Shown here: piece by piece, positions 7,772 through 42,960 of the stretch
Layout of the letters: every line of letters begins with the position of its first letter
Numbering within the stretch: the first letter of the stretch is position 1
From: a virus
Lineage: Duplodnaviria; Heunggongvirae; Uroviricota; Caudoviricetes
Length of the DNA stretch: 64,000 bases
IMG/VR virus record: IMGVR_UViG_2681813318_000003
Strand: one strand, 5' to 3'
Translations under genes and position numbers: made by a program
The notes under the pieces: model-generated
The model's database searches: none
Told to the model about the DNA's origin: nothing
The model's input: only the letters and a program-made list of their open reading frames with translations

Positions 7772-8092
7772 GTGTTTTTCCTTTGTGGTTATTTGATACA
7801 AATCTTAAGCTTGCTCGAGAGGTGAGCAACCAAGACAGCACGGCACAGAAGAACATCAACAGGCATAGTATTACAAAATAAATAGGTAAGTGAATACCTA
7901 CCAAAATTGTTGAATGGATTGCTTACAAGGCGGCTAGAGTTTCATTGAAGTGCTTAGATGTATATGGTAGGCAAAAGTCTCATCGTTACATATGAATGAA
8001 CTATCTCATGGGTCATGTATCATTTGATATTTTTATTATCAACAATTACTGTATAAGAGGAATTTTCCAAATTGAAAAAGGATTGATTATCA

Positions 8093-8350
8093 ATGGCTAT
8101 TGATGAAAGAAATATTGTTGTTGGTGGATTGTACAAGACCCATACGAATCAAGAACGGGTCGTTCTAGAAATAAAAGATGATGAAGTGAAATACGCTCCT
8201 CGAGGTGGAAATGTAGAAAATAAATTTGACCATATGCAAAAAGCCAAATTGATCACATTTGCAGGAGCATGTTCAGAAAAAATTAAAGATTTACCCTCCG
8301 ATGAATTTAATAAAATTCGACAACTATTTGTGGATAGAAAACTTATTTAA
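8093..8350 (+). CDS. hypothetical small protein
   Basis: 85 aa; AAGGA RBS about 8 nt upstream; followed by hairpin and T-run terminator at 8442-8471; plus-strand island. Confidence 0.55.
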   Translation: MAIDERNIVVGGLYKTHTNQERVVLEIKDDEVKYAPRGGNVENKFDHMQKAKLITFAGACSEKIKDLPSDEFNKIRQLFVDRKLI

Positions 8351-8441
8351 ATAGTTGTATTAGTTTTGAGGGTTTGTCTCTTAAAGGATTACCATTACTT
8401 GGATGAGTAAATTTTAAACAGGAAAAGTTCTAAAAGCCAAT

Positions 8442-8471
8442 GAGCGCCTATGTAACGAGCGCTCTTTTTTT
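8442..8471 (+). terminator. rho-independent terminator (GAGCGC/GCGCTC stem plus T7 run)
   Basis: Stem 8442-8447 / 8459-8464 followed by TTTTTTT at 8465-8471, between convergent genes. Confidence 0.55.
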
Positions 8472-8497
8472 GTTTGTGGATGGGCCTACTAAACCAT

Positions 8498-9151
8498 TTA
8501 AATCGTGTCGGAGGGCTTTTTACGCGCGTTACGCGCTGCGTTTATGCTTATGACGCCAGCTTTTGGACGTGGGTCAACAAGGTTAAGCTCTTCTTCACTG
8601 TGGTATTCGAGGTCGAACTCACGTTTTACATGTCTGATGTAGATTGCGGTGAGCAGGCTATCTTTGGTTAGGAAGTGTCCGTAGGATTTGCGGATCACTT
8701 CTTCTACCTTCTCGATTTTCTCACCCCCCATACAGAGATGATTAAACCGGCTGTGTTTTCGCAACATTTCGTCTACTGGACCTGAGTAAACCTTGTCTAC
8801 TTTCCCAAAACGGATGATTTTCCCTGTGTCTGCGGATACAAGGCAAATCAGCTTGTCTGGTGATAAACGATCTCGCCACGTCACACCTGAACGGAGTGTG
8901 TTGAAGTAGGGGGCATCCAATCCGATGATCGGTTTACGAAATGCGAGCAATGGAACGTACCTGATGCAACTGTTTAAATGAAAATTCACACCAGCCTTAT
9001 CAAGTTTAATTCTGGTTTCGTAGATCGGGCACTTCGCCGCTATACCGCAGATGTCACAAAGCAACTTCTGCTTATTCAGGTTGGAATTTGATTCGATAGT
9101 GTAGGAGCCGTCTTCAAGACGACGAACCCAGCGCGTGCGTTTTAGATCCAT
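8498..9151 (-). CDS. hypothetical protein (Cys-containing)
   Basis: 217 aa ORF ending just before the origin region; CDICG...C cluster; no confident family assignment. Confidence 0.55.
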   Translation of the reverse strand: MDLKRTRWVRRLEDGSYTIESNSNLNKQKLLCDICGIAAKCPIYETRIKLDKAGVNFHLNSCIRYVPLLAFRKPIIGLDAPYFNTLRSGVTWRDRLSPDKLICLVSADTGKIIRFGKVDKVYSGPVDEMLRKHSRFNHLCMGGEKIEKVEEVIRKSYGHFLTKDSLLTAIYIRHVKREFDLEYHSEEELNLVDPRPKAGVISINAARNARKKPSDTI

Positions 9152-9227
9152 ATGTCATTTTTCTGTGATTGTTAGCCGAGGCAACGATAACCCACCAGGT
9201 GCGCCGAAGGTAGTAAATGCCTGTTTT

Positions 9228-9310
9228 AATTATTCACATATCCACAGGATAGATCCTAATAAAGAGATCCATAGATAGATCCTTGTATAGATCAAATAAG
9301 ATCCCCGATC
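9228..9310. promoter_or_regulatory. origin-like region: two tandem DnaA boxes plus six clustered GATC sites in heptamer repeats
   Basis: TTATTCACA (9230-9238) and ATATCCACA (9238-9246) match the DnaA box consensus TTATNCACA. GATC at 9252, 9266, 9278, 9290, 9300, 9307 within (T/A)AGATCC repeats spaced about 12 bp. Confidence 0.7.
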
Positions 9311-9350
9311 GCTGTAAGCCGCGCCACGACTGGTCTGAAGCCATGTTCAT

Positions 9351-9457
9351 GTATGCTACCAGCGGTAATTGATAGTCTGTCAACGGTTCGCCGTATGCTG
9401 CCAACTGTTTTTGGTATGCTGCCAGCGGCAAATCAAGTATGCTGTCAGCGGTTGAAT
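9351..9457 (+). repeat. upstream iteron set (4-5 direct repeats, consensus GTATGCTGYCAGCGGT)
   Basis: Copies at 9351-9368, 9392-9409 (degenerate), 9414-9432, 9438-9457, plus a partial copy at 9375-9388; immediately precede the rep start. Confidence 0.8.
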
Positions 9458-9472
9458 GACAAAGGTGTCCAC

Positions 9473-10567
9473 ATGTCCACAAAAAATAAAAAAGGTAAAA
9501 ATAACAAAGAAGTAGAAGATAATCTCGACAACTTTGAAGAAGGTTCCCTTGAATTGTACACAGGGGAACTTGTCCCTAATAGCAACAATACAGTCCAACC
9601 AATTGCGTTGATGCGGCTGGGGTTGTTCGTGCCCACGCTCAAGGGGACAAAATACAGCAAGCGTAACAAGCCAAATGAGATCGATGCTTCAAAGGAGCTT
9701 GTTCAGCTCGAAGTAGCCCGTTCTGAAGGTTATTCCGATATCAAGATAACCGGTCCTCGTCTCGACATGGATCATGATTTCAAAACGTGGGTGGGCGTTG
9801 TGCGTTCGCTGGCAGAATACGGCGAACCTAACGGTCGTGTCGAGTTAAGCATCACGAAATTTGCGAAGTTTTGTGGCTATCCATCGTCACAGATCCGCAA
9901 AACACTCCGCGACCGGCTTACAAACAGTCTTTTGAAGATCATGCGTACAACTCTGTCTTTTCAGAGAACGTATGAAGAAAAGAACGTCGACGGCTCTAAC
10001 AAGATCTCGCTTCTGATGGTGCACCTCATCAATAGCGTGGACTACAACGAGCAGAAAGATACGGTGGTGTTCTATGCAGAACCGAAGCTGGCCGAACTAT
10101 ATCGCTTTGACCATAAGGTTCTTTTGCAGTTAAAGGTTATCAATAAGCTACCACGCAAAGAAACAGCACAGGCTCTGTACACCTTCATCGAAAGTCTTCC
10201 AACCAAGCCTGCGCCGGTATCGCTTGCTCGATTACGTGCGCGACTCAATTTGAGTAGCAGGAATGTCAGCTCGCAGAATCAGACTATACGTAACGGCTTA
10301 AAAGCTCTCCAAGATTTGGGCTATCTCGAATACAGCGAGATTAAGCGAGGGCGGTCGATCTATATCCAGATTCACAGCCGCAATCCAAAACTCAAAGTCG
10401 CACCGCCAAAACCTGAAGACATCGAACCCAAAAAACCAGATGAGAAAGCTGGGGAAATTGATGCCAAACAGAACATTATCAACAAGATAACCGAACTTTC
10501 GCAGAATTTGACGCCTGAAAATATCAAGATGATTGAGATCCTTTCCAATAGTCTCAAACTGCTTTGA
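9473..10567 (+). CDS. repA: iteron-binding plasmid-type replication initiator (Rep)
   Basis: Flanked on both sides by iteron arrays (P1 RepA-like layout). Start set at ATG 9473 with AAAGG RBS; the track ORF start at 9353 would translate the iterons. Confidence 0.7.
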   Translation: MSTKNKKGKNNKEVEDNLDNFEEGSLELYTGELVPNSNNTVQPIALMRLGLFVPTLKGTKYSKRNKPNEIDASKELVQLEVARSEGYSDIKITGPRLDMDHDFKTWVGVVRSLAEYGEPNGRVELSITKFAKFCGYPSSQIRKTLRDRLTNSLLKIMRTTLSFQRTYEEKNVDGSNKISLLMVHLINSVDYNEQKDTVVFYAEPKLAELYRFDHKVLLQLKVINKLPRKETAQALYTFIESLPTKPAPVSLARLRARLNLSSRNVSSQNQTIRNGLKALQDLGYLEYSEIKRGRSIYIQIHSRNPKLKVAPPKPEDIEPKKPDEKAGEIDAKQNIINKITELSQNLTPENIKMIEILSNSLKLL

Positions 10568-11100
10568 TATGCTGTCAGCGGTGAAATGTATGCTATCAGC
10601 GGCTATTTTTCTGAAAAGTATGCTGTGAACGGTTAAAGATATGCTACCAGCGGTATAGTGAGATAAACGTATGCTGTGAGCGGTAAATCATCTATCACCA
10701 CTCAATGCTCTGGCATACCTCCCCAGTGGTTACTAACCTCGAAGAGTGCATTCCATATAGGTTTGCGCTCACTAACATTCTATTGCCGTTGCGCTGATTG
10801 CTTGTAGTGAAAGGCATTTATTGCCTGCTGCTCCCTGATAGAACGTATGCTGTCAGCGGTGTTTTATTGAGGAATTTTTGTTTGGATATGCTATCAGCGG
10901 TAATTAATGGTATATGTCAGACCTTCGTATGCTGCCAGCGGTAATTTTGTTCTGGTTATAACCATACCGGTACACATTATTCATGCAATGTCTTAAGTAT
11001 GCTGTCAGCGGTAAAAAATCGAGTAAAGTATGCTGTGAGCGGTGAGATAAACTCTCGATATGCTATCAGCGGTAATTGATTGTGTATGCTGTCAGCGGTG
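10568..11100 (+). repeat. downstream iteron array (about 12 direct repeats in two blocks), likely copy-control locus
   Basis: GTATGCT(G/A)(T/C)(C/G)AGCGGT copies at about 10568, 10588, 10618, 10640, 10669, then 10845, 10886, 10927, 10997, 11028, 11058, 11084; all same orientation; first copy abuts rep stop. Confidence 0.8.
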
Positions 11101-11146
11101 ACGACTATGAAATATGACTGCGGCACGTGCCGCAGTCAGTTTGCAT

Positions 11147-11359
11147 TTAGTGTATTTTCTTTAACAGACCCCAAAGTGTTCCGGCTTTTGTAGTCAGTTT
11201 TCCTGTTTCTGGATCGTACATACGCCATTCACGCCGCTGGTGGACGATATACCCATCTTCACGTTCCAGACGCTCAAGAATGCCAGGCTGCTTGAAACCC
11301 TTAGCACGCCAGTAGCCGCTTGTTTTCTCGATTTCCAGACCTGCCAGTGTTAATGCCAT
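11147..11359 (-). CDS. hypothetical protein
   Basis: 70 aa ORF abutting the next gene upstream. Confidence 0.45.
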   Translation of the reverse strand: MALTLAGLEIEKTSGYWRAKGFKQPGILERLEREDGYIVHQRREWRMYDPETGKLTTKAGTLWGLLKKIH

Positions 11360-11694
11360 TATCCAACCTCCTTGCAGTCATCGAAAAGGTAGCTTTGCTG
11401 AGAAGCGTGAACGCCATAGAAGCCCTTGTATTTGTTGTATACGAAGTGGTCTTCTCCGACGCCGGTTAATTTGCCATTACGGTTTGTGAGATATGGGGAT
11501 GACAATACTCGATCGTCACGCACTACATAGAACTGGTCGCCGCTGTCTACGACCATCGCGCCATATGGTGCTTTTATGACGTCGGTAAAAGCGCCATTCT
11601 TAATGTCGGCTACAGACATTTCACACTGATAAACAGTGGTGTCGGCCACAACGATCGAAGAAAGGAACAACAAAGCGAATGGGATGGCCTTCAT
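11359..11694 (-). CDS. hypothetical secreted protein
   Basis: 111 aa; N-terminal signal-peptide-like hydrophobic segment (MKAIPFALLFLSSIVVA). Confidence 0.55.
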   Translation of the reverse strand: MKAIPFALLFLSSIVVADTTVYQCEMSVADIKNGAFTDVIKAPYGAMVVDSGDQFYVVRDDRVLSSPYLTNRNGKLTGVGEDHFVYNKYKGFYGVHASQQSYLFDDCKEVG

Positions 11695-13884: not shown

Positions 13885-14958
13885 TTACTCTTCTACTGAC
13901 TCGGTGGGGTTGTCTTTTGCTCTTCGGTCGTCGATTGCCTGCAAAGCCGCAATGATTTCAGCCAGTGGCTTCTCCCGATACATCTCGACGATCTGCGATT
14001 TGGTGTATTTCTTGTCACCAATTTCAACTCGCCCGCTGGCGTTCTTTGGCAGGTATCCTTCTTCCAGCATGTACTCGACGAGCGATTCGATAACGTCGAG
14101 GCCACGAGTAGGATCGAAGTAGAATTTCCAGGTGCATTTGCCATACGGTGGTGCAACTTTGTTTTTGATGCATTCTGCGCCTACGTCCTGGCCGATCTTC
14201 TCTTTACCATCCTTCATTACCGATGCACCAAGACGGATACGTACAGAAGCGTAGAACTTCGGTGAATCTCCACCTGGCGACGTAGTAGGGTCGCCAAACA
14301 TTACACCGATTTTTGTGCGAACCTGATTCAAGAAGATGATGCAGGCGTTGTATTTGCGTGCCCACAAAGCCAGAGTAGGGAAGTTCGCACTTGTCGCACG
14401 AGCCAGTGCCGTATTGTCGTTCATGTTTAGCTGATCTTTGTCTTTGGCAGTGCCTTCAGCCATCTTTTCGAACTTCTCGGCTTTGGTGTTCGGAACCATA
14501 GACGCAAGTGAGTCAGCCACGATACAGATAGGTGCTGATTCAGGGATAAGCTCTTCATCACGTACCAATTTAAGTATTGTGCCGATCAACTCTACAGAGT
14601 CTTCGAAGGTGTCAGGCTGCTTGTATACCCACTGACCGTCATCCTCATCTGCGTTCAGGCCATTGGCTACAGCCAGGCCAACGTCAAAACTGTTTTCATG
14701 ATCGAGGAATACCGCCAGACCATCTTGTTTTTGAGCGGAGATCATCGCTGCTGTCGCAAGGAACGTTTTCCCTGCACTTGGAGGACCGAATACTTCGACG
14801 ATACGACCACATGGGAAGCCGCCATCGTAACGACCGGAAATAGCTTTGTTTAACGGTGGAAAGCCTGTATCAATCCAATGAGTTACTTTCTGAATTTCGT
14901 CGTTGCTACCGATTTTCTTTTTCAGAGCAAGTGCCAGTGCGGATTTTCCTTTTGCCAT
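13885..14958 (-). CDS. RecA/UvsX-family recombinase
   Basis: 357 aa; GRIVEVFGPPSAGKT Walker A and IIFLNQVRTKIGVMFGDPTTSPGGDSPKFYASVRIRLG, colinear with the E. coli RecA core. Confidence 0.88.
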   Translation of the reverse strand: MAKGKSALALALKKKIGSNDEIQKVTHWIDTGFPPLNKAISGRYDGGFPCGRIVEVFGPPSAGKTFLATAAMISAQKQDGLAVFLDHENSFDVGLAVANGLNADEDDGQWVYKQPDTFEDSVELIGTILKLVRDEELIPESAPICIVADSLASMVPNTKAEKFEKMAEGTAKDKDQLNMNDNTALARATSANFPTLALWARKYNACIIFLNQVRTKIGVMFGDPTTSPGGDSPKFYASVRIRLGASVMKDGKEKIGQDVGAECIKNKVAPPYGKCTWKFYFDPTRGLDVIESLVEYMLEEGYLPKNASGRVEIGDKKYTKSQIVEMYREKPLAEIIAALQAIDDRRAKDNPTESVEE

Positions 14959-27254: not shown

Positions 27255-27445
27255 TAAGGTATGGAATTTAAATTCTGTAATATTAGAGGGGCATTACTTC
27301 GGAAATCGTGAACCTTTACATGTGAGGATTATTGTTCTATTTTTGCTGGGACACGTCGTAGCGCCGCCGGGATTATTAGGCTCGATATTGAGATTTTGAG
27401 CAGAGAGTAGGTTAAGAAGAGGCAATGACCGCTATTGCTTTCAGA

Positions 27446-27862
27446 TCAGGAGGCGTGAAAGTTTTCTGCAACGTTTGAAAAATATTTTAGTAGCCTAGTA
27501 TCTCTTGCAGACATGCGAACATGAGCTGGAGTGACTAACCCCATCAGCAAATAACGACCGTTCTCCCACATATGCTCGGTATAGATCAGATAGTGATCTG
27601 AAGTTCGGTTGTAGTTTTCTTGCCTTACACTCCAGGTTAACTGGAAATGTAAATTTACGTGAATATGTTGGACGTTAGCGTCAACGGCAAACGGAGGAAA
27701 ATCGAATGGCGCATCTCTACCAAGAAGATTGGACGGGTTGCCAGTTGATTTGTAGGTAATGAACTCAGTTTTGAGCTGATTTTCTAGATCAGGATAAACG
27801 GCAAAAGTAGGTTGAAAAAACTCTACCCATGTCTCTTGACTGTATTCAGCCGTTAATGCCAT
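27446..27862 (-). CDS. YafO-like type II toxin (ribosome-dependent mRNA interferase family)
   Basis: 138 aa; motif series FITYKSTGNP..GRDAPFD, VQHIHV, NYNRTSDHYLIY, LLMGLVTPAH, ARDTRL, AENF matches E. coli YafO as recalled from memory (needs HMM confirmation). Confidence 0.5.
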   Translation of the reverse strand: MALTAEYSQETWVEFFQPTFAVYPDLENQLKTEFITYKSTGNPSNLLGRDAPFDFPPFAVDANVQHIHVNLHFQLTWSVRQENYNRTSDHYLIYTEHMWENGRYLLMGLVTPAHVRMSARDTRLLKYFSNVAENFHAS

Positions 27863-28401
27863 TTGACTGCAGCCTTGTTGCCTGTCGCCAATAGATGATT
27901 CATGGCAACGAGGTTTACGCCAGAGTCACGTACTACAGAGGTGCGTGTAATCTGGTCGATCAGATTTAGATAATTTTTGGCCGCAATACTGACCATTTTA
28001 ATAGCTTTAAAGAAGGCAAACTCTACAGCGTTTTTGTCGTAAGACAAAATGACATCTTTTTCAGGTAACATCAAAACGAAAGATTCTGCGATTGCGGCTA
28101 CATGAATCGTTTGATTTTTAATTTCTTCCGCTACATTGACAGCAGCAAAAAAATCAGTGTCAGCATAACGAGCAAGTTCAGCGCGGCTTGAGCGCAGTTC
28201 TGTCGCTAGCTCATTAAGAGCTGCTGTAAGATCGCTGATGTCGGTTTTGTTGACTCTAGCGCCCATCTCATAAACCCGCTCTACAATAGTGGGCTGGCAC
28301 GCAACCGCTTTTGGTTGCGGCTGGATGCTGGCAAGAACCAGTGCCACTGCTGCCTGTAAATGCTGGATTTTAAATTTCACGATAGACTCCATAATCGTCA
28401 T
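27853..28401 (-). CDS. hypothetical protein, candidate cognate antitoxin
   Basis: 182 aa ORF overlapping the toxin start by 10 nt (operon); does not resemble YafN/Phd-type antitoxins; start codon uncertain. Confidence 0.45.
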   Translation of the reverse strand: MTIMESIVKFKIQHLQAAVALVLASIQPQPKAVACQPTIVERVYEMGARVNKTDISDLTAALNELATELRSSRAELARYADTDFFAAVNVAEEIKNQTIHVAAIAESFVLMLPEKDVILSYDKNAVEFAFFKAIKMVSIAAKNYLNLIDQITRTSVVRDSGVNLVAMNHLLATGNKAAVKWH

Positions 28402-28528
28402 TTCTCGACGAGGCGTAGTATTCTACTACTGAATTTAACTATAAGCTAAAAAAACTTGGTTGCATAGACGACTGAGACTGCAAAACACGAAATGAAAAAT
28501 TAAAGGCCGCTTTCACGGCCCTTTAAAG

Positions 28529-28774
28529 TCAAAGTGTGCTGACATATGCGGCCAGCTCTGTGTATCCGCCAATAGGTTGGCCATCGATCAGCACTTGGGG
28601 GATAGTCTCTACCGGTTTACCAACAATTTCGCTAAGTTTTTCCTTGTCGATACCGGCAGTTGTGATGTCGATGTACTCATAATCACCGTAGCCATGTCCC
28701 TTTAGTTGCTTCGCCAGCTCGACCGCACGTTTGCAGTATGAGCAGTTATCTCGTCCGTAGATAACGACTTTCAT
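28529..28774 (-). CDS. glutaredoxin (RNR electron donor type)
   Basis: CSYC active site near N-terminus and PQVLIDGQPIGGY C-terminal motif; start set at ATG 28774 (track uses upstream GTG). Confidence 0.85.
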   Translation of the reverse strand: MKVVIYGRDNCSYCKRAVELAKQLKGHGYGDYEYIDITTAGIDKEKLSEIVGKPVETIPQVLIDGQPIGGYTELAAYVSTL

Positions 28775-28890
28775 CACTTCACCTCGTGCAACTGCTGTTC
28801 ATTAACGATGATTGTGTCAATTTCGTAGCCGTGGATGCGTTTCACTGCCTGACGAGCTGCGCGACGCGCCTGTTTACGTTTGTTTCCCAT
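28771..28890 (-). CDS. small basic protein (39 aa)
   Basis: Manual translation MGNKRKQARRAARQAVKRIHGYEIDTIIVNEQQLHEVK; AAAGGA RBS; stop overlaps the glutaredoxin start (TGATG); below track cutoff. Confidence 0.3.
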
Positions 28891-28991
28891 ATTGAGTCCT
28901 TTCAAGTGAGTAAGTGTCGTGACTATAGCTAAAATGAATAAGTGAGTCATTACCTATTTAATGTGTTGGGTTACTAAGCAGAAATGGCTTT

Positions 28992-30329
28992 GTGAGGTTG
29001 ACGCACCAGAACCGGCAAGACAGCTTTAAACTAGCTGAAATGGTATGGTCGATTAGGTATCATTCAGTTTCAAAATTAACCAAAGACACTGATAAAATGC
29101 CTGTTTTGTTAATCCTCATACTTGGGACAGTGATGATTATTTTCTGGGATACCGTCAAGGAAAACGTAGAGGTCATAGGTACACTTGCCACTTCACTTGC
29201 ATTTTTCGCCACAGCATGGGCCGCTTACGAGGCAAGGCATAGTGCAAAGGCAGCAATGAGGGCTACTAGGCTGACGGCAGCTTCACTCCTTGAAATGAAA
29301 AAAGCCTCTTTTAAGGAATGGTACGGCATATTACTTGAACAGCATAATAGATTACTTGAGGATGTTAACAAGACCTTGCAGGATGATAGGGAACTTAATG
29401 CAAAACTGGGAATGAATCTCATCAAGGCTATTTATTACCATGTAACCAAAAACTCCGTTTACATTAAATATATTAACCACATAGTTTTAATTCTTGATTA
29501 TTTAGATAAAGACTTCTATTCGCCGTCATCAGCCGATTATGAAAAGAGAGCTTACATAGAACAGCTGCGCAACAGCATTAGTCCTAATGTAAGCCTGCTG
29601 ATAGCTACATTCGGCCTTAATATTGACACTAATAAAACCTATGACGCAAAGAGACTTTACAGTCTGCTAAGCAAGTATAACTTCTTCGAAGGCCAACTTT
29701 TTTTTGAAGAAGCAATATCGAAAGTTCATTATTTGGACTCTTATGCTGCTGTGATATTTGATAACGAATACCGAAAAGATGTAGAGTTTTATGTTGAAGA
29801 AATGGTTCGAGGTCGTGAGACCCCTAAAATCGATACAAGATACCGTCATTTAAGGGCTACGTTCGCAATTCTGTGGTCTTACAACAACCCCTGCCGACAA
29901 CATTTGCTTCAAAGATTTAATGACCTACCTATGCATATGCGAAACAGCATTGAGCTGAGGATGGAAAATGCAGCCGATAAAGTAGCTGAGTTCAACTCTT
30001 TGTTACCTGGTTTTATAGGCTGGGAGCTTAGAATCGCAGGTAATAAAGTGAGGGTGATCAAGGATGAAAAACATTTAAAGAGGCTAATAAAACTCAACGA
30101 TAAGTATCCTATTTCCCCCCGAGAGAGAAGTATTCTGTTAACCAATGGTATCACCAATAGATTCGCTGATGAGATTAAAAATAGTCTGTCTATGTATAAG
30201 TTAGAAAATGCCTATTTAGCACTCAACTCTAATCAACACAAAGAAAAGGTGATTGATGAAATTGTTGTTGAAGTTGAGAAAATTGTCGATAAATTTAAAG
30301 CAGAACTTGATTCTTTAGATTTCAACTAA
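28992..30329 (+). CDS. hypothetical two-transmembrane-helix protein in an AT-rich plus-strand island
   Basis: 445 aa ORF; two N-terminal hydrophobic helices then about 350 aa soluble domain; markedly AT-rich relative to flanks; true start may be internal (for example ATG 29097 MPVLLILILG). Confidence 0.6.
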   Translation: MRLTHQNRQDSFKLAEMVWSIRYHSVSKLTKDTDKMPVLLILILGTVMIIFWDTVKENVEVIGTLATSLAFFATAWAAYEARHSAKAAMRATRLTAASLLEMKKASFKEWYGILLEQHNRLLEDVNKTLQDDRELNAKLGMNLIKAIYYHVTKNSVYIKYINHIVLILDYLDKDFYSPSSADYEKRAYIEQLRNSISPNVSLLIATFGLNIDTNKTYDAKRLYSLLSKYNFFEGQLFFEEAISKVHYLDSYAAVIFDNEYRKDVEFYVEEMVRGRETPKIDTRYRHLRATFAILWSYNNPCRQHLLQRFNDLPMHMRNSIELRMENAADKVAEFNSLLPGFIGWELRIAGNKVRVIKDEKHLKRLIKLNDKYPISPRERSILLTNGITNRFADEIKNSLSMYKLENAYLALNSNQHKEKVIDEIVVEVEKIVDKFKAELDSLDFN

Positions 30330-30331
30330 GC

Positions 30332-30356
30332 AAAAAGGGGCCGAAGCCCCTTTAAT
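30332..30356 (+). terminator. rho-independent terminator (GGGGC CGAA GCCCC plus T-rich tail)
   Basis: Stem 30337-30341 / 30346-30350 followed by TTTAATTATTT; A-run upstream makes it potentially bidirectional. Confidence 0.7.
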
Positions 30357-30508
30357 TATTTGCGCTGAAAAAAGTGTTGCTACGATGCTAAGAAGCAATG
30401 GTTAAGAACGTCTGCCGTAATTGTCTATCACAGCGTTGAGCGGTCTGGTTTATGTTAGCGGAGTCTTAATCTGGGTGATTAAAAGGCCAAACCGCTCAAC
30501 GCTGTGTC

Positions 30509-30595
30509 TGGCGGAGAGTAATGGAATCGAACCATCATCGCTTGCGCAATGGGACGGTTTTCAAGACCGCTTGAGCACCATGCTCCCTACTCTCC
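30509..30595 (-). tRNA. tRNA-Ser (anticodon UGA), type II with long variable arm
   Basis: Manual cloverleaf: acceptor GGAGAGT/ACTCTCC, anticodon stem-loop GCGGT-CUUGAAA-ACCGT (as in E. coli serT), T-arm GATGG-TTCGATT-CCATT, encoded CCA. Confidence 0.7.
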
Positions 30596-30915
30596 GGCCG
30601 TTGTGGTGGCCGGTACTGAACTCCGACACAGGGTTGTAGCAAACCCCGCAAAGCGCGCACTACTGTAGTTGCGGCACATCAGCCTGTGCATTCATCACAA
30701 CGGTAAGATCACTACCTTTCGACCAGTCATTGTGCACATGAACGACGATTAACCGTAATGATATTATCGTTGTGTTGTGAAGCCAGATGCTTATCTTCTG
30801 GTTGCTTCAAAGAGCTGCACTTCCTCACAACGGTAAGAGCACTGGTCTGACTCTATCGATTTACGGCCTTGTGGGTCAGTATCGCCGATTCGCCCAATGC
30901 TCTTACCTGTTGTGT

Positions 30916-30991
30916 TGGTGCCGGTTAACGGACTTGAACCGCTGGCCATTCGCTTACAAAGCGACTGCTCTACCAACTGAGCTAAACCGGC
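30916..30991 (-). tRNA. tRNA-Thr (anticodon UGU)
   Basis: 76 nt: GCCGGTT acceptor, D-arm GCTC-AGTTGGTA-GAGC, anticodon loop TTTGTAA, T-arm AGCGG-TTCAAGT-CCGTT, encoded CCA. Confidence 0.8.
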
Positions 30992-30995
30992 AATT

Positions 30996-31082
30996 TGGTG
31001 GGGAGTGATGGAGTCGAACCACCCGAGTCGCCATGACAGTAGATTTACAGTCTACACCGCTACCTCTACGGACTAACTCCCC
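30996..31082 (-). tRNA. tRNA-Tyr (anticodon GUA), type II
   Basis: 87 nt: acceptor GGGGAGT/ACTCCCC, anticodon stem-loop GTAGA-CTGTAAA-TCTAC, long variable arm, T-arm GGTGG-TTCGACT-CCATC, encoded CCA. Confidence 0.8.
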
Positions 31083-31087
31083 TAAAT

Positions 31088-31162
31088 TGGCGATGGTGGG
31101 TGGATTCGAACCACCGACCAGTTGGTTAACAGCCAACTGCTCTACCGCTGAGCTACACCATC
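31088..31162 (-). tRNA. tRNA-Asn (anticodon GUU)
   Basis: 75 nt: acceptor GATGGTG/CACCATC, D-arm GCTC-AGCGGTA-GAGC, anticodon stem-loop GTTGG-CTGTTAA-CCAAC, T-arm GGTGG-TTCGAAT-CCACC, encoded CCA. Confidence 0.85.
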
Positions 31163-35767: not shown

Positions 35768-35999
35768 GTTGGCTTCCCTTTATTTATATTTATTGCAGGT
35801 ATTAGTTAATCAAAACACGAGCAGTGCCACAATAATTAAATGGCGTACTATTTCTTATGGTTATTAGTTTCCCGGTAACTTTACCGACCATAAACTAAAT
35901 CAACAAAGCTGACATATTAACTAAATTTAAGTACCCTTTTCGCACACTTGACGCTTGCCGCGTCTAAACTGTTCATCCTATATCAACAGAACAAAAAAT

Positions 36000-37145
36000 A
36001 TGAAATACATAAAATCTTCATCGTTGCTGGCATTAACTTTGCTTTTTAGCTCTGGATTCGTTAACGCAGACAATAAACAAACGCTGATAGAAGCCGCTAA
36101 CGCAGGGAATACCGCAGCACAAAGTGAGTTAGGGACAAATTATTTTGATGGTATCAATGGTTTTGATAAGGATGTAGTTGAGGCCAAGAAGTGGATTGAT
36201 CTAGCTGCAGAAAAGGGAGATAAAGTAGCATATTATGCACTTGGAGTTATGTACACATTTGGCGAGGGTGTAGATAAAGACCTAAATAAAGCTGTTGAGT
36301 ACTACAAACTTGCGGGGGACGCTCGTGAAGGTAGAGCCTACAACAATCTTGGTGCTATTTATCAAAAGGGGATGCTTGGTAAAGTAGATCATGCACTCGC
36401 CATTAAATACTTCAAACTAGCCTCTGATGCCGGGTATGTTAAAGCAACTTCAGTTCTTGGGGCGTATTACCAATATGGTGAAGGCGTTCAAAAGAATTAT
36501 AAAAAGGCTTTTGCTTATTACAAAAAAGCGGCGGATCAAGGTAGTTCAGATGGTATGTTCGCATTAGGCACCTTATACGATGATGGTTTAGGTGTTAAAC
36601 GAAACGATGCCGAAGCAATTAAGTGGTATAAAAAAGCTGCTGAACTCGGAAACGTCGATGCCATGACAAATCTTGGCATTATGTATGAGAATGGCGAGGG
36701 TGTTAAAAAGGATTATAAAAAAGCAGCCGATTTTTATCAGGCCGCTTGCGATAAAGGAGATAAAAGCGGCTGTAAATACATTGCAGAACTGAAAGAAAGC
36801 GGCAAATATCGAGCGCCGGCTTCCAAAGCCAAAACAAAATCCGCCACCCAGCGACTTATTGCTAAATCCATTGATAAGGGCGTTAACGCTACATTTACCT
36901 GGCAGGGTGATGATGCTACCTTCACCGCTAATGATGGCAAAGTTGACTGCACCTTCCTGAAGGATTTTTCAGAGAAAGGAGGCAATCTGGCTACCTCGTT
37001 TGTTTGCACCGATAACGTTCAAATCATCCTGAAGCAATTCAGAGATACCAAAAATGCCTACCTCGCGGTAATGACTGACAACTTCAATACTGAAGTTAAA
37101 TCATTTTCGGTCAATGTGTATGTGACTAATACTGGTTCAAACTAA
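36000..37145 (+). CDS. Sel1-like repeat (SLR/TPR-like) secreted protein
   Basis: Signal peptide MKYIKSSSLLALTLLFSSGFVNA; about six Sel1-type repeats (A..WY.KAA..G...A...LG.MY..GEGV.KD). Start set at ATG 36000 rather than track start 35955. Confidence 0.65.
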   Translation: MKYIKSSSLLALTLLFSSGFVNADNKQTLIEAANAGNTAAQSELGTNYFDGINGFDKDVVEAKKWIDLAAEKGDKVAYYALGVMYTFGEGVDKDLNKAVEYYKLAGDAREGRAYNNLGAIYQKGMLGKVDHALAIKYFKLASDAGYVKATSVLGAYYQYGEGVQKNYKKAFAYYKKAADQGSSDGMFALGTLYDDGLGVKRNDAEAIKWYKKAAELGNVDAMTNLGIMYENGEGVKKDYKKAADFYQAACDKGDKSGCKYIAELKESGKYRAPASKAKTKSATQRLIAKSIDKGVNATFTWQGDDATFTANDGKVDCTFLKDFSEKGGNLATSFVCTDNVQIILKQFRDTKNAYLAVMTDNFNTEVKSFSVNVYVTNTGSN

Positions 37146-41932: not shown

Positions 41933-42292
41933 TCAACCTTTCTTCATTAACTCGCGTTTAATTTCATCGGTACGCATCGTGACATCGGCAGCAGTGATCG
42001 CCTCGTTAAGCTTCACGATGTCCTCGATTTCCTGCGGTGACTTCTCTGCCAGATGGAAAATGGCTGCTCGAATCACGTCAGAACGAGTGAACTTCTCGAA
42101 GCGAGGGATGAACTTCATCATCTCCAGCAGTTCGAAGTATTCGTCTTCCAGTGACATTGTGCGGCTTTTAATTTTCTCTTTGCCACGAGTCGGGCGTCCC
42201 TGTGGTCTGACTGGTTGGCGCAAAGGAGTTGTGTTCTTAGCCGGTGCATCAGGCTCTTTGCGCTTTGCTAGGTCACCCATTTTCATGGACAT
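41933..42292 (-). CDS. small partition protein, candidate centromere-binding protein (ParG/ParB-like)
   Basis: 119 aa; basic flexible N-terminus (KRKEPDAPAKNTTPLRQPVRPQGRPTRGKEK) and helical C-terminal domain; immediately downstream of and coupled to parA. Confidence 0.5.
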   Translation of the reverse strand: MSMKMGDLAKRKEPDAPAKNTTPLRQPVRPQGRPTRGKEKIKSRTMSLEDEYFELLEMMKFIPRFEKFTRSDVIRAAIFHLAEKSPQEIEDIVKLNEAITAADVTMRTDEIKRELMKKG

Positions 42293-42960
42293 TATTCTTC
42301 TTCCTCCAGACTCAACAGATAATCTACAAATTCTTCAAACTCGGCTTCCGCCTTTTTGTCGCGCTCGCTACCGGTCATTTCAAAGATAGAACGACCAGAC
42401 TCTTCCGCATCATCATAGACGTTGCGGTTATATAGATTGACTGGCGCAGACTCGATGCCAAACGTCTCAACAATCTCTTTAGCCGCCAGAATGCGAGACA
42501 CTTGTGATGGCAAAGCCGGGCACTGGTTCATGACCGCGCGGACCTTCACTTTATCGTTTACATTACGAACATTGTCGATAATAGGATCAATGTCACGCAG
42601 AGATTTCAAATCACGACGCTTAGGACGAAGCGGGATAATGATAACGTCGGCCATCAGCATCGCTTGTCGCTGAATTTCGGAGTCAAAGCCACCAGCATCT
42701 ACCACTACAAACTCAGCTCTACCCTGAAGCGATTTTAGGTGCTTAATGATGTCATCCTGAACGTATGCAAAAGGAATCAGCTCAAGGTCTTCGTTCTGTC
42801 GACGGTCTTCACACCAGCTTGTTGTCGTGCGCTGAATATCTATATCAGTGATATAAACCTTCTTCTTCTTTTTGACTTTCAGGCAAACGGCAATTTGCTG
42901 GGCAACGGTGGATTTGCCAGGCCCGCCCTTTGTGCCGCCAACCACAAAGATCTTGGTCAT
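42292..42960 (-). CDS. parA: ParA/ParF-family partition ATPase
   Basis: 222 aa; deviant Walker A GGTKGGPGKST at N-terminus and ParA-like core. Confidence 0.8.
   Translation of the reverse strand: MTKIFVVGGTKGGPGKSTVAQQIAVCLKVKKKKKVYITDIDIQRTTTSWCEDRRQNEDLELIPFAYVQDDIIKHLKSLQGRAEFVVVDAGGFDSEIQRQAMLMADVIIIPLRPKRRDLKSLRDIDPIIDNVRNVNDKVKVRAVMNQCPALPSQVSRILAAKEIVETFGIESAPVNLYNRNVYDDAEESGRSIFEMTGSERDKKAEAEFEEFVDYLLSLEEEE

Follow-up and report, generated by a model that had tools for sequence, protein, structure and literature searches.

The segment at positions 9230–11138 of the window, the 64,000-nucleotide stretch of Caudoviricetes DNA analyzed here (IMG/VR record IMGVR_UViG_2681813318_000003), is very probably the prophage-maintenance replicon of an SSU5-type phage-plasmid and a diverged member of the P1 RepA/RepFIB group. 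This replicon and that of P1, both of which maintain the prophages of phage-plasmids, have a common order of tandem DnaA boxes, GATC heptamers, GC-rich spacer, five iterons, rep, and control array, and the P1-type oriR/incC-repA-incA layout proposed in the first-pass annotation corresponds in each of its elements to the curated annotation of P1. Judged from the alignments of the Rep protein and of the origin nucleotides, the resemblance to P1 is one of homology. The replicon is already catalogued as a known relative of P1 and IncFIB, and its type of phage-plasmid has already been described; replicon typing assigns it to the pECOH89/p09EL50 Rep type and to MOB-suite rep_cluster_488.

The outer end of the origin is formed by two tandem DnaA boxes on the + strand (9230–9246), located where the first-pass annotation had placed them, of which TTATTCACA (9230–9238) has no mismatch to the DnaA box TTATNCACA and ATATCCACA (9238–9246) has one. 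The two boxes overlap by one base, fall in alignment on the DnaA-binding site annotated in P1 oriR (1167–1184 in the P1 sequence compared), and are kept in seven related replicons. No other tandem pair of same-strand DnaA boxes occurs within the 64-kb window, but such a pair arose somewhere in 64 kb in 29 of 300 shuffles, so that what makes the pair convincing is where it lies and its homology to P1, the statistics alone being insufficient. The AT-rich segment that follows (9248–9310, + strand, 34% G+C) contains six GATC (Dam) sites at 9252, 9266, 9278, 9290, 9300, and 9307, with spacings of 14, 12, 12, 10, and 7 nt, and aligns with five annotated Dam sites of P1. Five of these sites lie in heptamers of the (A/G)AGATC(C/A) type and the sixth in CGATCG, which agrees with the six sites and five heptamers reported earlier for 9252–9310. 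With six GATC in 59 bp vs 4.2 per kb overall, this is the densest GATC cluster of the window, and a maximum cluster of six was reached in 6 of 5000 random placements; the segment is presumed to be the region of unwinding and SeqA sequestration. Between the heptamers and the iterons lies a G+C-rich spacer, GCCGCGCCACGACTGG (9311–9340, + strand; 62% G+C when measured over 9307–9340), whose block GCCGCGCCACG is conserved across the aligned replicon family. The nucleotide alignment with P1 oriR covers the first ∼120 nt of the origin, including this block, which is identical in P1, and the origin core can be aligned across seven replicons whose iterons differ.

Five origin iterons comparable to incC follow on the + strand (9351–9456; starts at 9351, 9372, 9393, 9414, and 9437), spaced by 21, 21, 21, and 23 bp, compared with 21, 21, 21, and 22 bp in P1 incC. 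The earlier count of four to five iterons at 9351–9457 is explained by the degeneracy of the second and third copies, and degenerate middle iterons are also found in P1 and in the Salmonella relative. Downstream of rep, the incA-like control array consists of five direct iterons in block 1 (10567–10688, + strand) and seven direct iterons in block 2 (10845–11103, + strand; spacings of 41, 41, 70, 31, 30, and 26), which bears out the reading of twelve same-orientation iterons in two blocks. The first iteron of block 1 overlaps the rep stop codon, and similarly, incA iteron 9 of P1 begins at the repA stop codon. An inter-block spacer had been noted at 160 bp; it is present (10689–10844, ∼156 bp), and its length is corrected to 156–160 bp. 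A G+C-rich hairpin with a 10-bp stem and the look of a bidirectional terminator (11115–11138) closes the module. The iteron consensus, G-TATGCTGTCAGCGG-T, has 16 informative positions, and the pattern has 17 matches on the + strand in 9352–11098 plus one weak match on the − strand inside rep; the whole window contains 21 matches vs 3.7 expected by chance, and none of 100 shuffles reached 21.

Comparison with the Salmonella relative gives 85% conservation in the origin iterons vs 69% in the inter-iteron bases, and 83% vs 50%, respectively, in block 1. With conservation of 83–85% in the iterons and 50–69% in the bases between them, the iterons are under purifying selection. The inter-block spacer is kept in length and not in sequence (54% identity to the Salmonella relative), the block-to-block distance being 176 nt in the window and 174 nt in that relative; it contains no ORF of at least 50 aa, and an Rfam search at E ≤ 1 over 8900–11500, including this spacer, matched no RNA family. 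Block 2 is complete, at 97.7–99.8% identity, in the full-length Escherichia plasmids listed, and the control array is present to at least 80% in 122 records. Across relatives, the iteron sequence covaries with the Rep lineage while iteron number, spacing, and position are maintained. A 19-nt inverted repeat (95%) between origin iteron 3 and a site within rep (9806–9828) appeared non-random and was set aside as probably not functional, being absent from the Salmonella and Klebsiella relatives.

The rep gene (9473–10567, + strand) is an ATG-to-stop frame of 364 aa at the position given in the first-pass annotation, and its product is predicted to be an iteron-binding initiator of the P1 RepA/RepFIB family. 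An HMM search, which had been proposed as a check on Rep, matched Pfam Rep3_N (WH1) at residues 118–239 (3.9e-9; 37.5 bits vs a cut-off of 22.4). BLASTP aligned Rep with residues 20–284 of the 286 residues of P1 RepA at 46% identity (129/278, E 4e-86), tblastn gave E-values of 2e-64 to P1 and 1e-68 to a P7 repA fragment record, and PHROG 775 was matched at 4.6e-133. Identity is 93% to the Rep of the Salmonella relative, 85% to that of the Klebsiella relative, ∼50% to the RepA of IncFIB plasmids, and 47% to SSU5 RepA. No WH2 model was matched in Pfam and no family in NCBIfam, sequence searches of the PDB with Rep alone and with an eight-sequence profile found no initiator structure, and a single-sequence AlphaFold model (mean pLDDT 39) was unusable. 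Rep extends beyond P1 RepA at the N-terminus and in a C-terminal tail of ∼55 aa; a role of this tail in contacting a replisome protein encoded by the phage backbone was considered and dropped, as classical IncFIB RepA has a similar tail. The RepA family is mislabeled as “replication helicase” in both PHROGs and RefSeq.

The ATG at 9473 is preceded by AAAGGT 6 nt upstream. RefSeq probably starts rep too far upstream, as a 404-aa frame from the ATG at 9353, which lies within iteron 1. A candidate weak rep promoter, TTGGTA-N16-AAGTAT (9411–9438, + strand), may lie between iterons 3 and 5, at a location equivalent to that of the annotated P1 PrepA inside iterons 12–10; a consensus sigma-70 scan reported no + strand promoter among the iterons, this candidate included. 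A possible further DnaA box, the 9-mer GTGTCCACA (9465–9473, + strand), has two mismatches and overlaps the rep start codon, and the Salmonella and Klebsiella relatives have GTATCCACA, with one mismatch, at this position. P1 has CTATCCACA between its iterons and repA, whereas this right-hand box is degenerate in the window and overlaps the ATG.

Several features separate the replicon from that of P1. The iteron had been described as different from the P1 iteron, and it is, being TATGCTGTCAGCGG in the window and TGTGTGCTGGAGGG in P1; no P1-type iterons (GATGTGTGCTGGAGGGAAA, recognized by P1 RepA) were found in the replicon region. By its iteron sequence, the replicon is placed outside the P1 specificity group (IncY), and because the iterons differ, cross-incompatibility with P1 is not expected. 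The control iterons number 12 in the window, all direct and in two blocks, vs nine in P1, three direct and six inverted, and the quantitative behavior of the array may therefore differ from that of P1. The P1 parAB-parS genes lie directly downstream of incA, whereas in the window this place is taken by small opposite-strand ORFs, with no parAB-parS, and a candidate partition locus lies 31 kb away on the − strand (41933–42960). This locus consists of a gene for a ParA-like ATPase (42292–42960, 222 aa), with matches to Pfam MipZ, AAA_31, CbiA, and ParA and to PHROG 164 “ParA-like partition protein” (4.2e-51), and a gene for a 119-aa partner (41933–42292). The phage backbone is likewise unrelated to that of P1, being of the SSU5 siphovirus type. 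The phage DNA-metabolism surroundings recognized earlier agree with the annotation, which gives nrdAB and SbcCD-like, RecA-like, 5′-3′ exonuclease, dnaE, ligase, primase, and DnaB-like helicase genes, then tail genes. The features of the SSU5 supergroup, a siphovirus structural and DNA-metabolism backbone plus plasmid replication and partition genes, are all present.

The replicon occurs at 98–99% identity in ∼120 plasmids, and among 5,426 complete E. coli genomes it was found at 185 places in 120 genomes and never in a chromosome. Most of the records that bear it are circular and ∼100–115 kb in size, and MOB-suite reported no further replicon on them. One carrier, p09EL50, is a ∼110-kb plasmid by PFGE (PMC3486847), and its RepA and that of pECOH89 are 100% identical (PMC3999498). 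After electroporation, E. coli TOP10 maintained a Klebsiella relative whose Rep lineage is ∼85% identical to that of the window (PMC6735626), and phage-plasmids of the SSU5 group have been typed as IncFIB (PMC7969092). The plasmid-only records and these published carriers thus back the plasmid state that the first-pass annotation had proposed. Two near-identical genomes, PhiR41_1 (98.4% identical) and CMS-2020a, have also been deposited as phages, and the window is collinear with pEC881_2 at 95–99% identity, except for one 371-bp stretch at 78%. A 2026 preprint on heteroresistance, in which RepA is mentioned 41 times, was rejected as a source, since the phage-plasmid that it treats, 49 kb in size and with an IncFII CopA/CopT replicon, is unrelated.

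The replicon could be a decayed or silent relic in an element that is maintained or replicated from another origin with its own DnaE, helicase, and primase. In favor of this reading are the complete complement of replication proteins encoded by the element, the degeneracy of origin iterons 2 and 3, and the failure to find a strong promoter. It is very unlikely, since the rep ORF is intact, its product keeps 93% identity in the Salmonella relative and 85% in the Klebsiella relative despite divergence elsewhere, purifying selection acts on the iterons, the module is 98–99% conserved in ∼120 plasmids, MOB-suite gives no other replicon for these records, and the degeneracy of the middle iterons extends to the Salmonella relative and P1. 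The repeats could also be read as prophage attachment sites or recombination scars around an inserted gene, as the record of Klebsiella phage pJN2-26 labels 20-bp repeats flanking its rep as attR and attL; these two are simply 2 of the 13 iterons of that locus. The window has 17 copies with 21-bp phasing, adjoining DnaA boxes and a Dam cluster that are homologous to P1 oriR, and the element was chromosomal in none of the 5,426 genomes. Repeat copy number and arrangement refute the attachment-site reading, which retains practically no probability.

As a functional plasmid replicon, the element is expected to work in the manner of P1, from which its dependence on DnaA and on Dam and SeqA, its autoregulation, and its handcuffing are inferred; for Dam, SeqA, and handcuffing, the sources are the GenBank annotation of P1 and background knowledge. 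Rep monomers would bind the five origin iterons and host DnaA the tandem boxes, and together they would open the AT-rich segment of GATC heptamers for loading of the host helicase. Firing of the origin would require full Dam methylation of the heptamers, and SeqA would afterward sequester the hemimethylated GATCs and block immediate re-initiation. The rep promoter among iterons 3–5 would be repressed by Rep, and the twelve downstream iterons would keep the copy number near one per chromosome by titrating Rep and by pairing through Rep with the origin iterons in cis and in trans (handcuffing), which would also make them the main determinant of incompatibility. Inheritance may be stabilized by the distant ParA-type locus and probably also by a YafO toxin module. 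It is rather unlikely that the downstream array acts mainly as a passive sink for Rep and that handcuffing is not the main control of copy number. The 12 downstream vs five origin sites, their direct orientation and irregular spacing, and the unconserved sequence of the 156-bp spacer would fit such titration, and sequence leaves pairing unproven; however, origin pairing is ascribed to RepA in the annotation of P1 itself, and titration and pairing are not mutually exclusive. In iteron plasmids, including P1, titration alone cannot set the copy number because rep is autoregulated, and pairing has been demonstrated for P1 incA.

Related replicons share different parts of this organization. RepFIB, the IncFIB replicon of F-type conjugative plasmids, has a RepA slightly closer to the window Rep than that of P1, in a conjugative host element rather than a phage. 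Classical IncFIB replicons resemble the window in the DnaA box and the phased GATC cluster at the head of the origin. In pCombat13F7-2 (typed IncFIB), for example, a DnaA box precedes five GATCs spaced by ∼11 bp, rep is flanked by iterons, and RepA ends in a C-terminal tail of the window style, but the iterons are of the ACAGCTTAT type and in mixed orientation, both of which differ from the window. The IncpKPHS1 plasmids and SSU5-like phage-plasmids of Klebsiella (pKPHS1, pJN2-26) belong to the Rep lineage of the window (85% identity) and agree with it in the iteron consensus, in the five iterons of the origin, and in a downstream array of direct iterons only, which contains eight iterons (4 + 4, with an 87-nt gap) vs 12 in the window; the start of the control array recurs in ∼340 Klebsiella plasmids. 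Iterons have been mislabeled as att sites in one phage record of this group. The ori2/RctB system of Vibrio cholerae chromosome 2 offers a functional analogy with an unrelated initiator and no expected sequence homology, since ori2 is an iteron origin with a DnaA box, Dam-dependent initiation, and SeqA sequestration, in which extra initiator sites exert negative control by titration and handcuffing (PMC6090056). It differs from the window in its 39-mer control sites, in having GATC inside the iterons, and in its crtS-linked firing.

The replicon of SSU5, pHCM2, and pLF82 (phage Cyrano) has the phage-plasmid backbone and the replicon insertion site in common with the window, the flanks of the window replicon being 98% identical to pLF82 and 73–77% identical to SSU5, and in the DnaA/GATC half of the origin, which they have in common, the identity is 88%. 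The Rep of this type belongs to the same family and also has the C-terminal tail, yet is only 46–47% identical, which agrees with the 48% published for the RepA proteins of pECOH89 and pLF82 (PMC3999498), and its iterons, of the TATCCACTGTAG type and in mixed orientation, are unrelated to those of the window. The pLF82 record compared was NC_011917, and the link to pECOH89 was taken from the literature (PMC3999498). Homology to pLF82 stops at 9339, in the G+C spacer, and resumes at 11130, and window positions 9340–11129 have no nucleotide match to SSU5 or pLF82. We lean toward a two-part origin, in which the host-factor half (DnaA boxes, Dam heptamers, and GC spacer) would remain part of the conserved phage backbone and the specificity half (9340–11129), comprising iterons, rep, and iterons with a 12-iteron all-direct array distinct from P1 incA, would be exchanged as a cassette between sibling phage-plasmids. 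The breakpoints of this cassette would lie exactly at the junction of spacer and iterons and just past the last iteron.

The replicon governs the maintenance, typing, and separation of a widespread family of phage-plasmids in E. coli, Shigella, and Salmonella; ∼2% of the complete genomes of E. coli contain it, and CTX-M-15 is present in some of its carriers. The origin anatomy given here goes beyond the sole published description found for this Rep lineage, in which a Klebsiella relative was described with four downstream iterons only and no known RepA domain (PMC6735626). The general understanding of iteron replicons is unchanged by these results, and their main value lies in better annotation. 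The cassette boundaries provide a concrete hypothesis for incompatibility switching by sibling phage-plasmids; if it is true, near-identical phages would obtain different incompatibility and could co-reside.

The replicon begins with two tandem DnaA boxes, TTATTCACA (9230-9238) and ATATCCACA (9238-9246), located by direct reading and pattern search and having one base in common. The tandem pair is the sole one in the window and is persuasive through its position and homology, not through statistics, because 29 of 300 shuffles also produced one somewhere. Six GATC sites follow (9252, 9266, 9278, 9290, 9300, and 9307) in a segment with 34% G+C, five of them held by AGATC(C/A)-type heptamers; no other GATC cluster in the 64 kb is as dense, such density arose in 6 of 5000 random placements, and a spacer with 62% G+C comes directly after the segment. 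Five origin iterons (starts 9351, 9372, 9393, 9414, and 9437; spacing 21, 21, 21, and 23) precede rep, which runs from ATG 9473 to a stop at 10567 and encodes 364 aa. Downstream are 12 control iterons, all on the + strand, in a block of five (10567-10688), the first overlapping the rep stop codon, and a block of seven (10845-11103), and a hairpin resembling a bidirectional terminator (11115-11138) ends the module. The iteron has 16 informative positions (consensus G-TATGCTGTCAGCGG-T) and its pattern is matched 21 times in the whole window versus 3.7 expected by chance, a count reached in 0 of 100 shuffles, with 17 of the 21 being + strand matches inside 9352-11098. In comparison with a Salmonella relative (Rep 93% identical), conservation is 83-85% in iteron bases versus 50-69% in inter-iteron bases, and the spacer between the blocks is conserved in length (176 vs. 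174 nt) but not in sequence (54% identity). Direct reading of 9000-11400 together with repeat and pattern searches confirmed every element listed in the first-pass annotation (tandem DnaA boxes, GATC sites, iterons, rep, and two iteron blocks). A 19-nt inverted repeat (95% complementary) also pairs 9385-9407, origin iteron 3 with its 8-nt flank, with 9806-9828 (- strand), where an iteron-like site lies within rep at the codons for SLAEYGEP; chance is an unlikely explanation, but the repeat is not conserved in Salmonella or Klebsiella relatives.

An HMM search of Rep, which had been proposed as a check, found the WH1 domain that is typical of iteron initiators (Pfam Rep3_N). Rep is 46% identical to P1 RepA (E 4e-86, residues 20-284 of the 286-aa P1 protein aligned) and ~50% identical to RepA of a classical IncFIB plasmid. 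RefSeq (PGAP) places the rep start at ATG 9353, within iteron 1, giving 404 aa, whereas the phage record PhiR41_1 and the P1 layout favor ATG 9473, which has an AAAGGT Shine-Dalgarno sequence; the upstream frame (9353-9472) is kept open by the 21-bp iteron phasing and probably misleads gene callers. The P1 RepA family is named "replication helicase" in PHROGs (PHROG 775) and several RefSeq phage records (P1, P7, and SSU5), but it is a family of iteron-binding initiators, not helicases. In the public record of Klebsiella phage pJN2-26, 20-bp repeats around rep (1378-1397 and 2648-2667) are called attR and attL, which we reject as a misannotation, both being among the 13 iterons of that replicon.

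The proposal that this is a P1-type replicon is supported by element order, Rep homology, and alignment of the origin core. All elements of the curated P1 record, in which oriR, incC, repA, and incA are each annotated, recur in the same order, and in both replicons five origin iterons are phased at 21 bp and the control array starts at the stop codon of rep. Over its initial ~120 nt, which comprise DnaA boxes, heptamers, and spacer, the origin aligns with P1 oriR, the GCCGCGCCACG block being identical, and this core can be aligned over seven replicons that have iterons of unrelated sequence; the same origin head, with a DnaA box, five GATCs ~11 bp apart, and then iterons, is seen in a classical IncFIB plasmid. 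The resemblance to P1 is thus due to homology. Across the six lineages compared, iterons differ in sequence from one Rep lineage to the next but are constant in number, spacing, and position, the mark of an initiator that evolves together with its binding sites. The iteron differs in sequence from that of P1, as had been claimed, and incompatibility with P1 is therefore not expected. The 12 direct control iterons in two blocks also differ from the nine of P1 (three direct and six inverted); downstream iterons are 4+4 and all direct in a Klebsiella relative and of mixed orientation in SSU5, JK004, and RCS47. Window Rep has a ~55-aa C-terminal tail, shared with SSU5-type and classical IncFIB RepAs, that P1-lineage RepAs lack. 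Unlike in P1, a degenerate 9-mer overlapping the start codon (9465-9473) is the sole right-hand DnaA-like box; it reads GTGTCCACA-TG in the window and GTATCCACA-TG in Salmonella and Klebsiella relatives, and may be the counterpart of the P1 right-hand DnaA box.

By homology with P1, Rep bound to the five origin iterons and DnaA bound to its boxes would open the AT-rich heptamer segment, firing would require Dam methylation, and the hemimethylated origin would afterward be sequestered by SeqA, the Dam requirement and SeqA sequestration being details of P1 replication. Rep would also repress its own promoter among the iterons, and the downstream array would limit copy number through titration and handcuffing and set incompatibility; the P1 record gives RepA the roles of initiator, autorepressor, and pairing. 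A weak point is that a promoter scan gave no consensus promoter, the only candidate being a weak one (TTGGTA-N16-AAGTAT, 9411-9438) at the position of P1 PrepA.

The 2-kb replicon region is 98-99% identical in ~120 plasmids, mostly of 100-115 kb, from E. coli, E. albertii, and Shigella. These carry the annotation "RepB family plasmid replication initiator protein" and the type rep_cluster_488, and the region also matches three phage-deposited records (PhiR41_1 and CMS-2020a). Among 5,426 complete E. coli genomes, it occurs in 120, at 185 places, all in plasmid records, with no chromosomal copy. The window is collinear with pEC881_2, and the literature assigns such elements to the SSU5 phage-plasmid supergroup, with IncFIB as their type (PMC7969092; bioRxiv 10.1101/2025.09.12.675607). 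The replicon is carried by p09EL50, seen by PFGE as a ~110 kb plasmid (PMC3486847), and pECOH89 RepA is 100% identical to p09EL50 RepA and 48% identical to pLF82 RepA (PMC3999498). The window replicon is therefore of the pECOH89/p09EL50 Rep type. This type probably corresponds to IncFIB(H89-PhagePlasmid) of PlasmidFinder, a name in routine use. For Klebsiella "IncpKPHS1" plasmids, four downstream iterons and "no known domain" were reported, and one such plasmid was electroporated into E. coli TOP10 (PMC6735626); no other published anatomy of the window's Rep lineage was found. Several E. albertii plasmids of ~62 kb (62-64 kb), three recorded from wild birds, carry the replicon at 99.2% identity and may be defective forms of the ~110 kb phage-plasmid that arose by deletion.

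The setting among phage DNA-metabolism genes was correctly recognized, the neighbors being nrdAB, an SbcCD-like pair, a RecA-like gene, a 5'-3' exonuclease, dnaE, ligase, primase, and a DnaB-like helicase, followed by tail genes. A ParA-like ATPase (222 aa) with a downstream 119-aa partner (41933-42960, - strand) is a candidate type-Ib partition locus, which lies 31 kb from the replicon and, unlike in P1, does not adjoin the control array; two ParB-N-domain genes occur in relatives beyond the window (10966-12332 of L013, a stretch of pEC881_2). The RecA-like gene (13885-14958, - strand; 357 aa, Pfam RecA 2e-42) is uninterrupted, whereas pLF82 and PhiR41_1 have at its position a 2340-nt gene annotated as a LAGLIDADG homing endonuclease or RecA-like protein, which suggests that siblings differ in whether they have an intein there. 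A YafO-family toxin (138 aa, Pfam 1.7e-20) overlapping a 182-aa upstream ORF (27446-28401, - strand) probably forms a toxin-antitoxin stability module, within a segment (27255-30894) without a match in pEC881_2. Four tRNA genes (Ser-tga, Thr-tgt, Tyr-gta, and Asn-gtt) lie at 30509-31162 (- strand); for pECOH89, only Thr and Asn tRNA genes are reported. A Sel1-repeat protein (396 aa, Pfam 5.5e-54; 35955-37145, + strand), its surrounding segment unmatched in pEC881_2, is accessory cargo. A ~720-bp segment (7810-8528) between a metallophosphoesterase gene and the gene upstream of the origin is unmatched in pLF82 and pEC881_2 and holds an 85-aa ORF (8093-8350) without a match in a Pfam search. Close relatives carry a phage N6-adenine methyltransferase gene outside the window (38920-39513 of L013, 66419-67012 of pEC881_2), and dam is reported on pECOH89; a Dam-type enzyme encoded by the element itself would be a parallel to P1, with a bearing on the GATC-rich origin, the gene being absent from the window.

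The backbone of pLF82 (phage Cyrano) is 98% identical to the window on either side of the replicon, and homology is 88% over the upstream gene and the DnaA, GATC, and spacer half of the origin, up to 9339. It is gone from 9340 and back at 11130, so that the breakpoints are the spacer/iteron junction (9339/9340) and a point just past the last iteron, and the module 9340-11129 is replaced as a unit between the window and both pLF82 and SSU5. This loss and resumption of homology points to exchange of iterons, rep, and iterons as a cassette, the host-factor half of the origin apparently remaining with the backbone. A parallel is found in P1-like elements, where IncY and p0111 replicases are alternatives at one site (PMC7969092). 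The replicon type is already catalogued and belongs to a known phage-plasmid family, and the main remaining value lies in better annotation and in the observation of the cassette boundaries.
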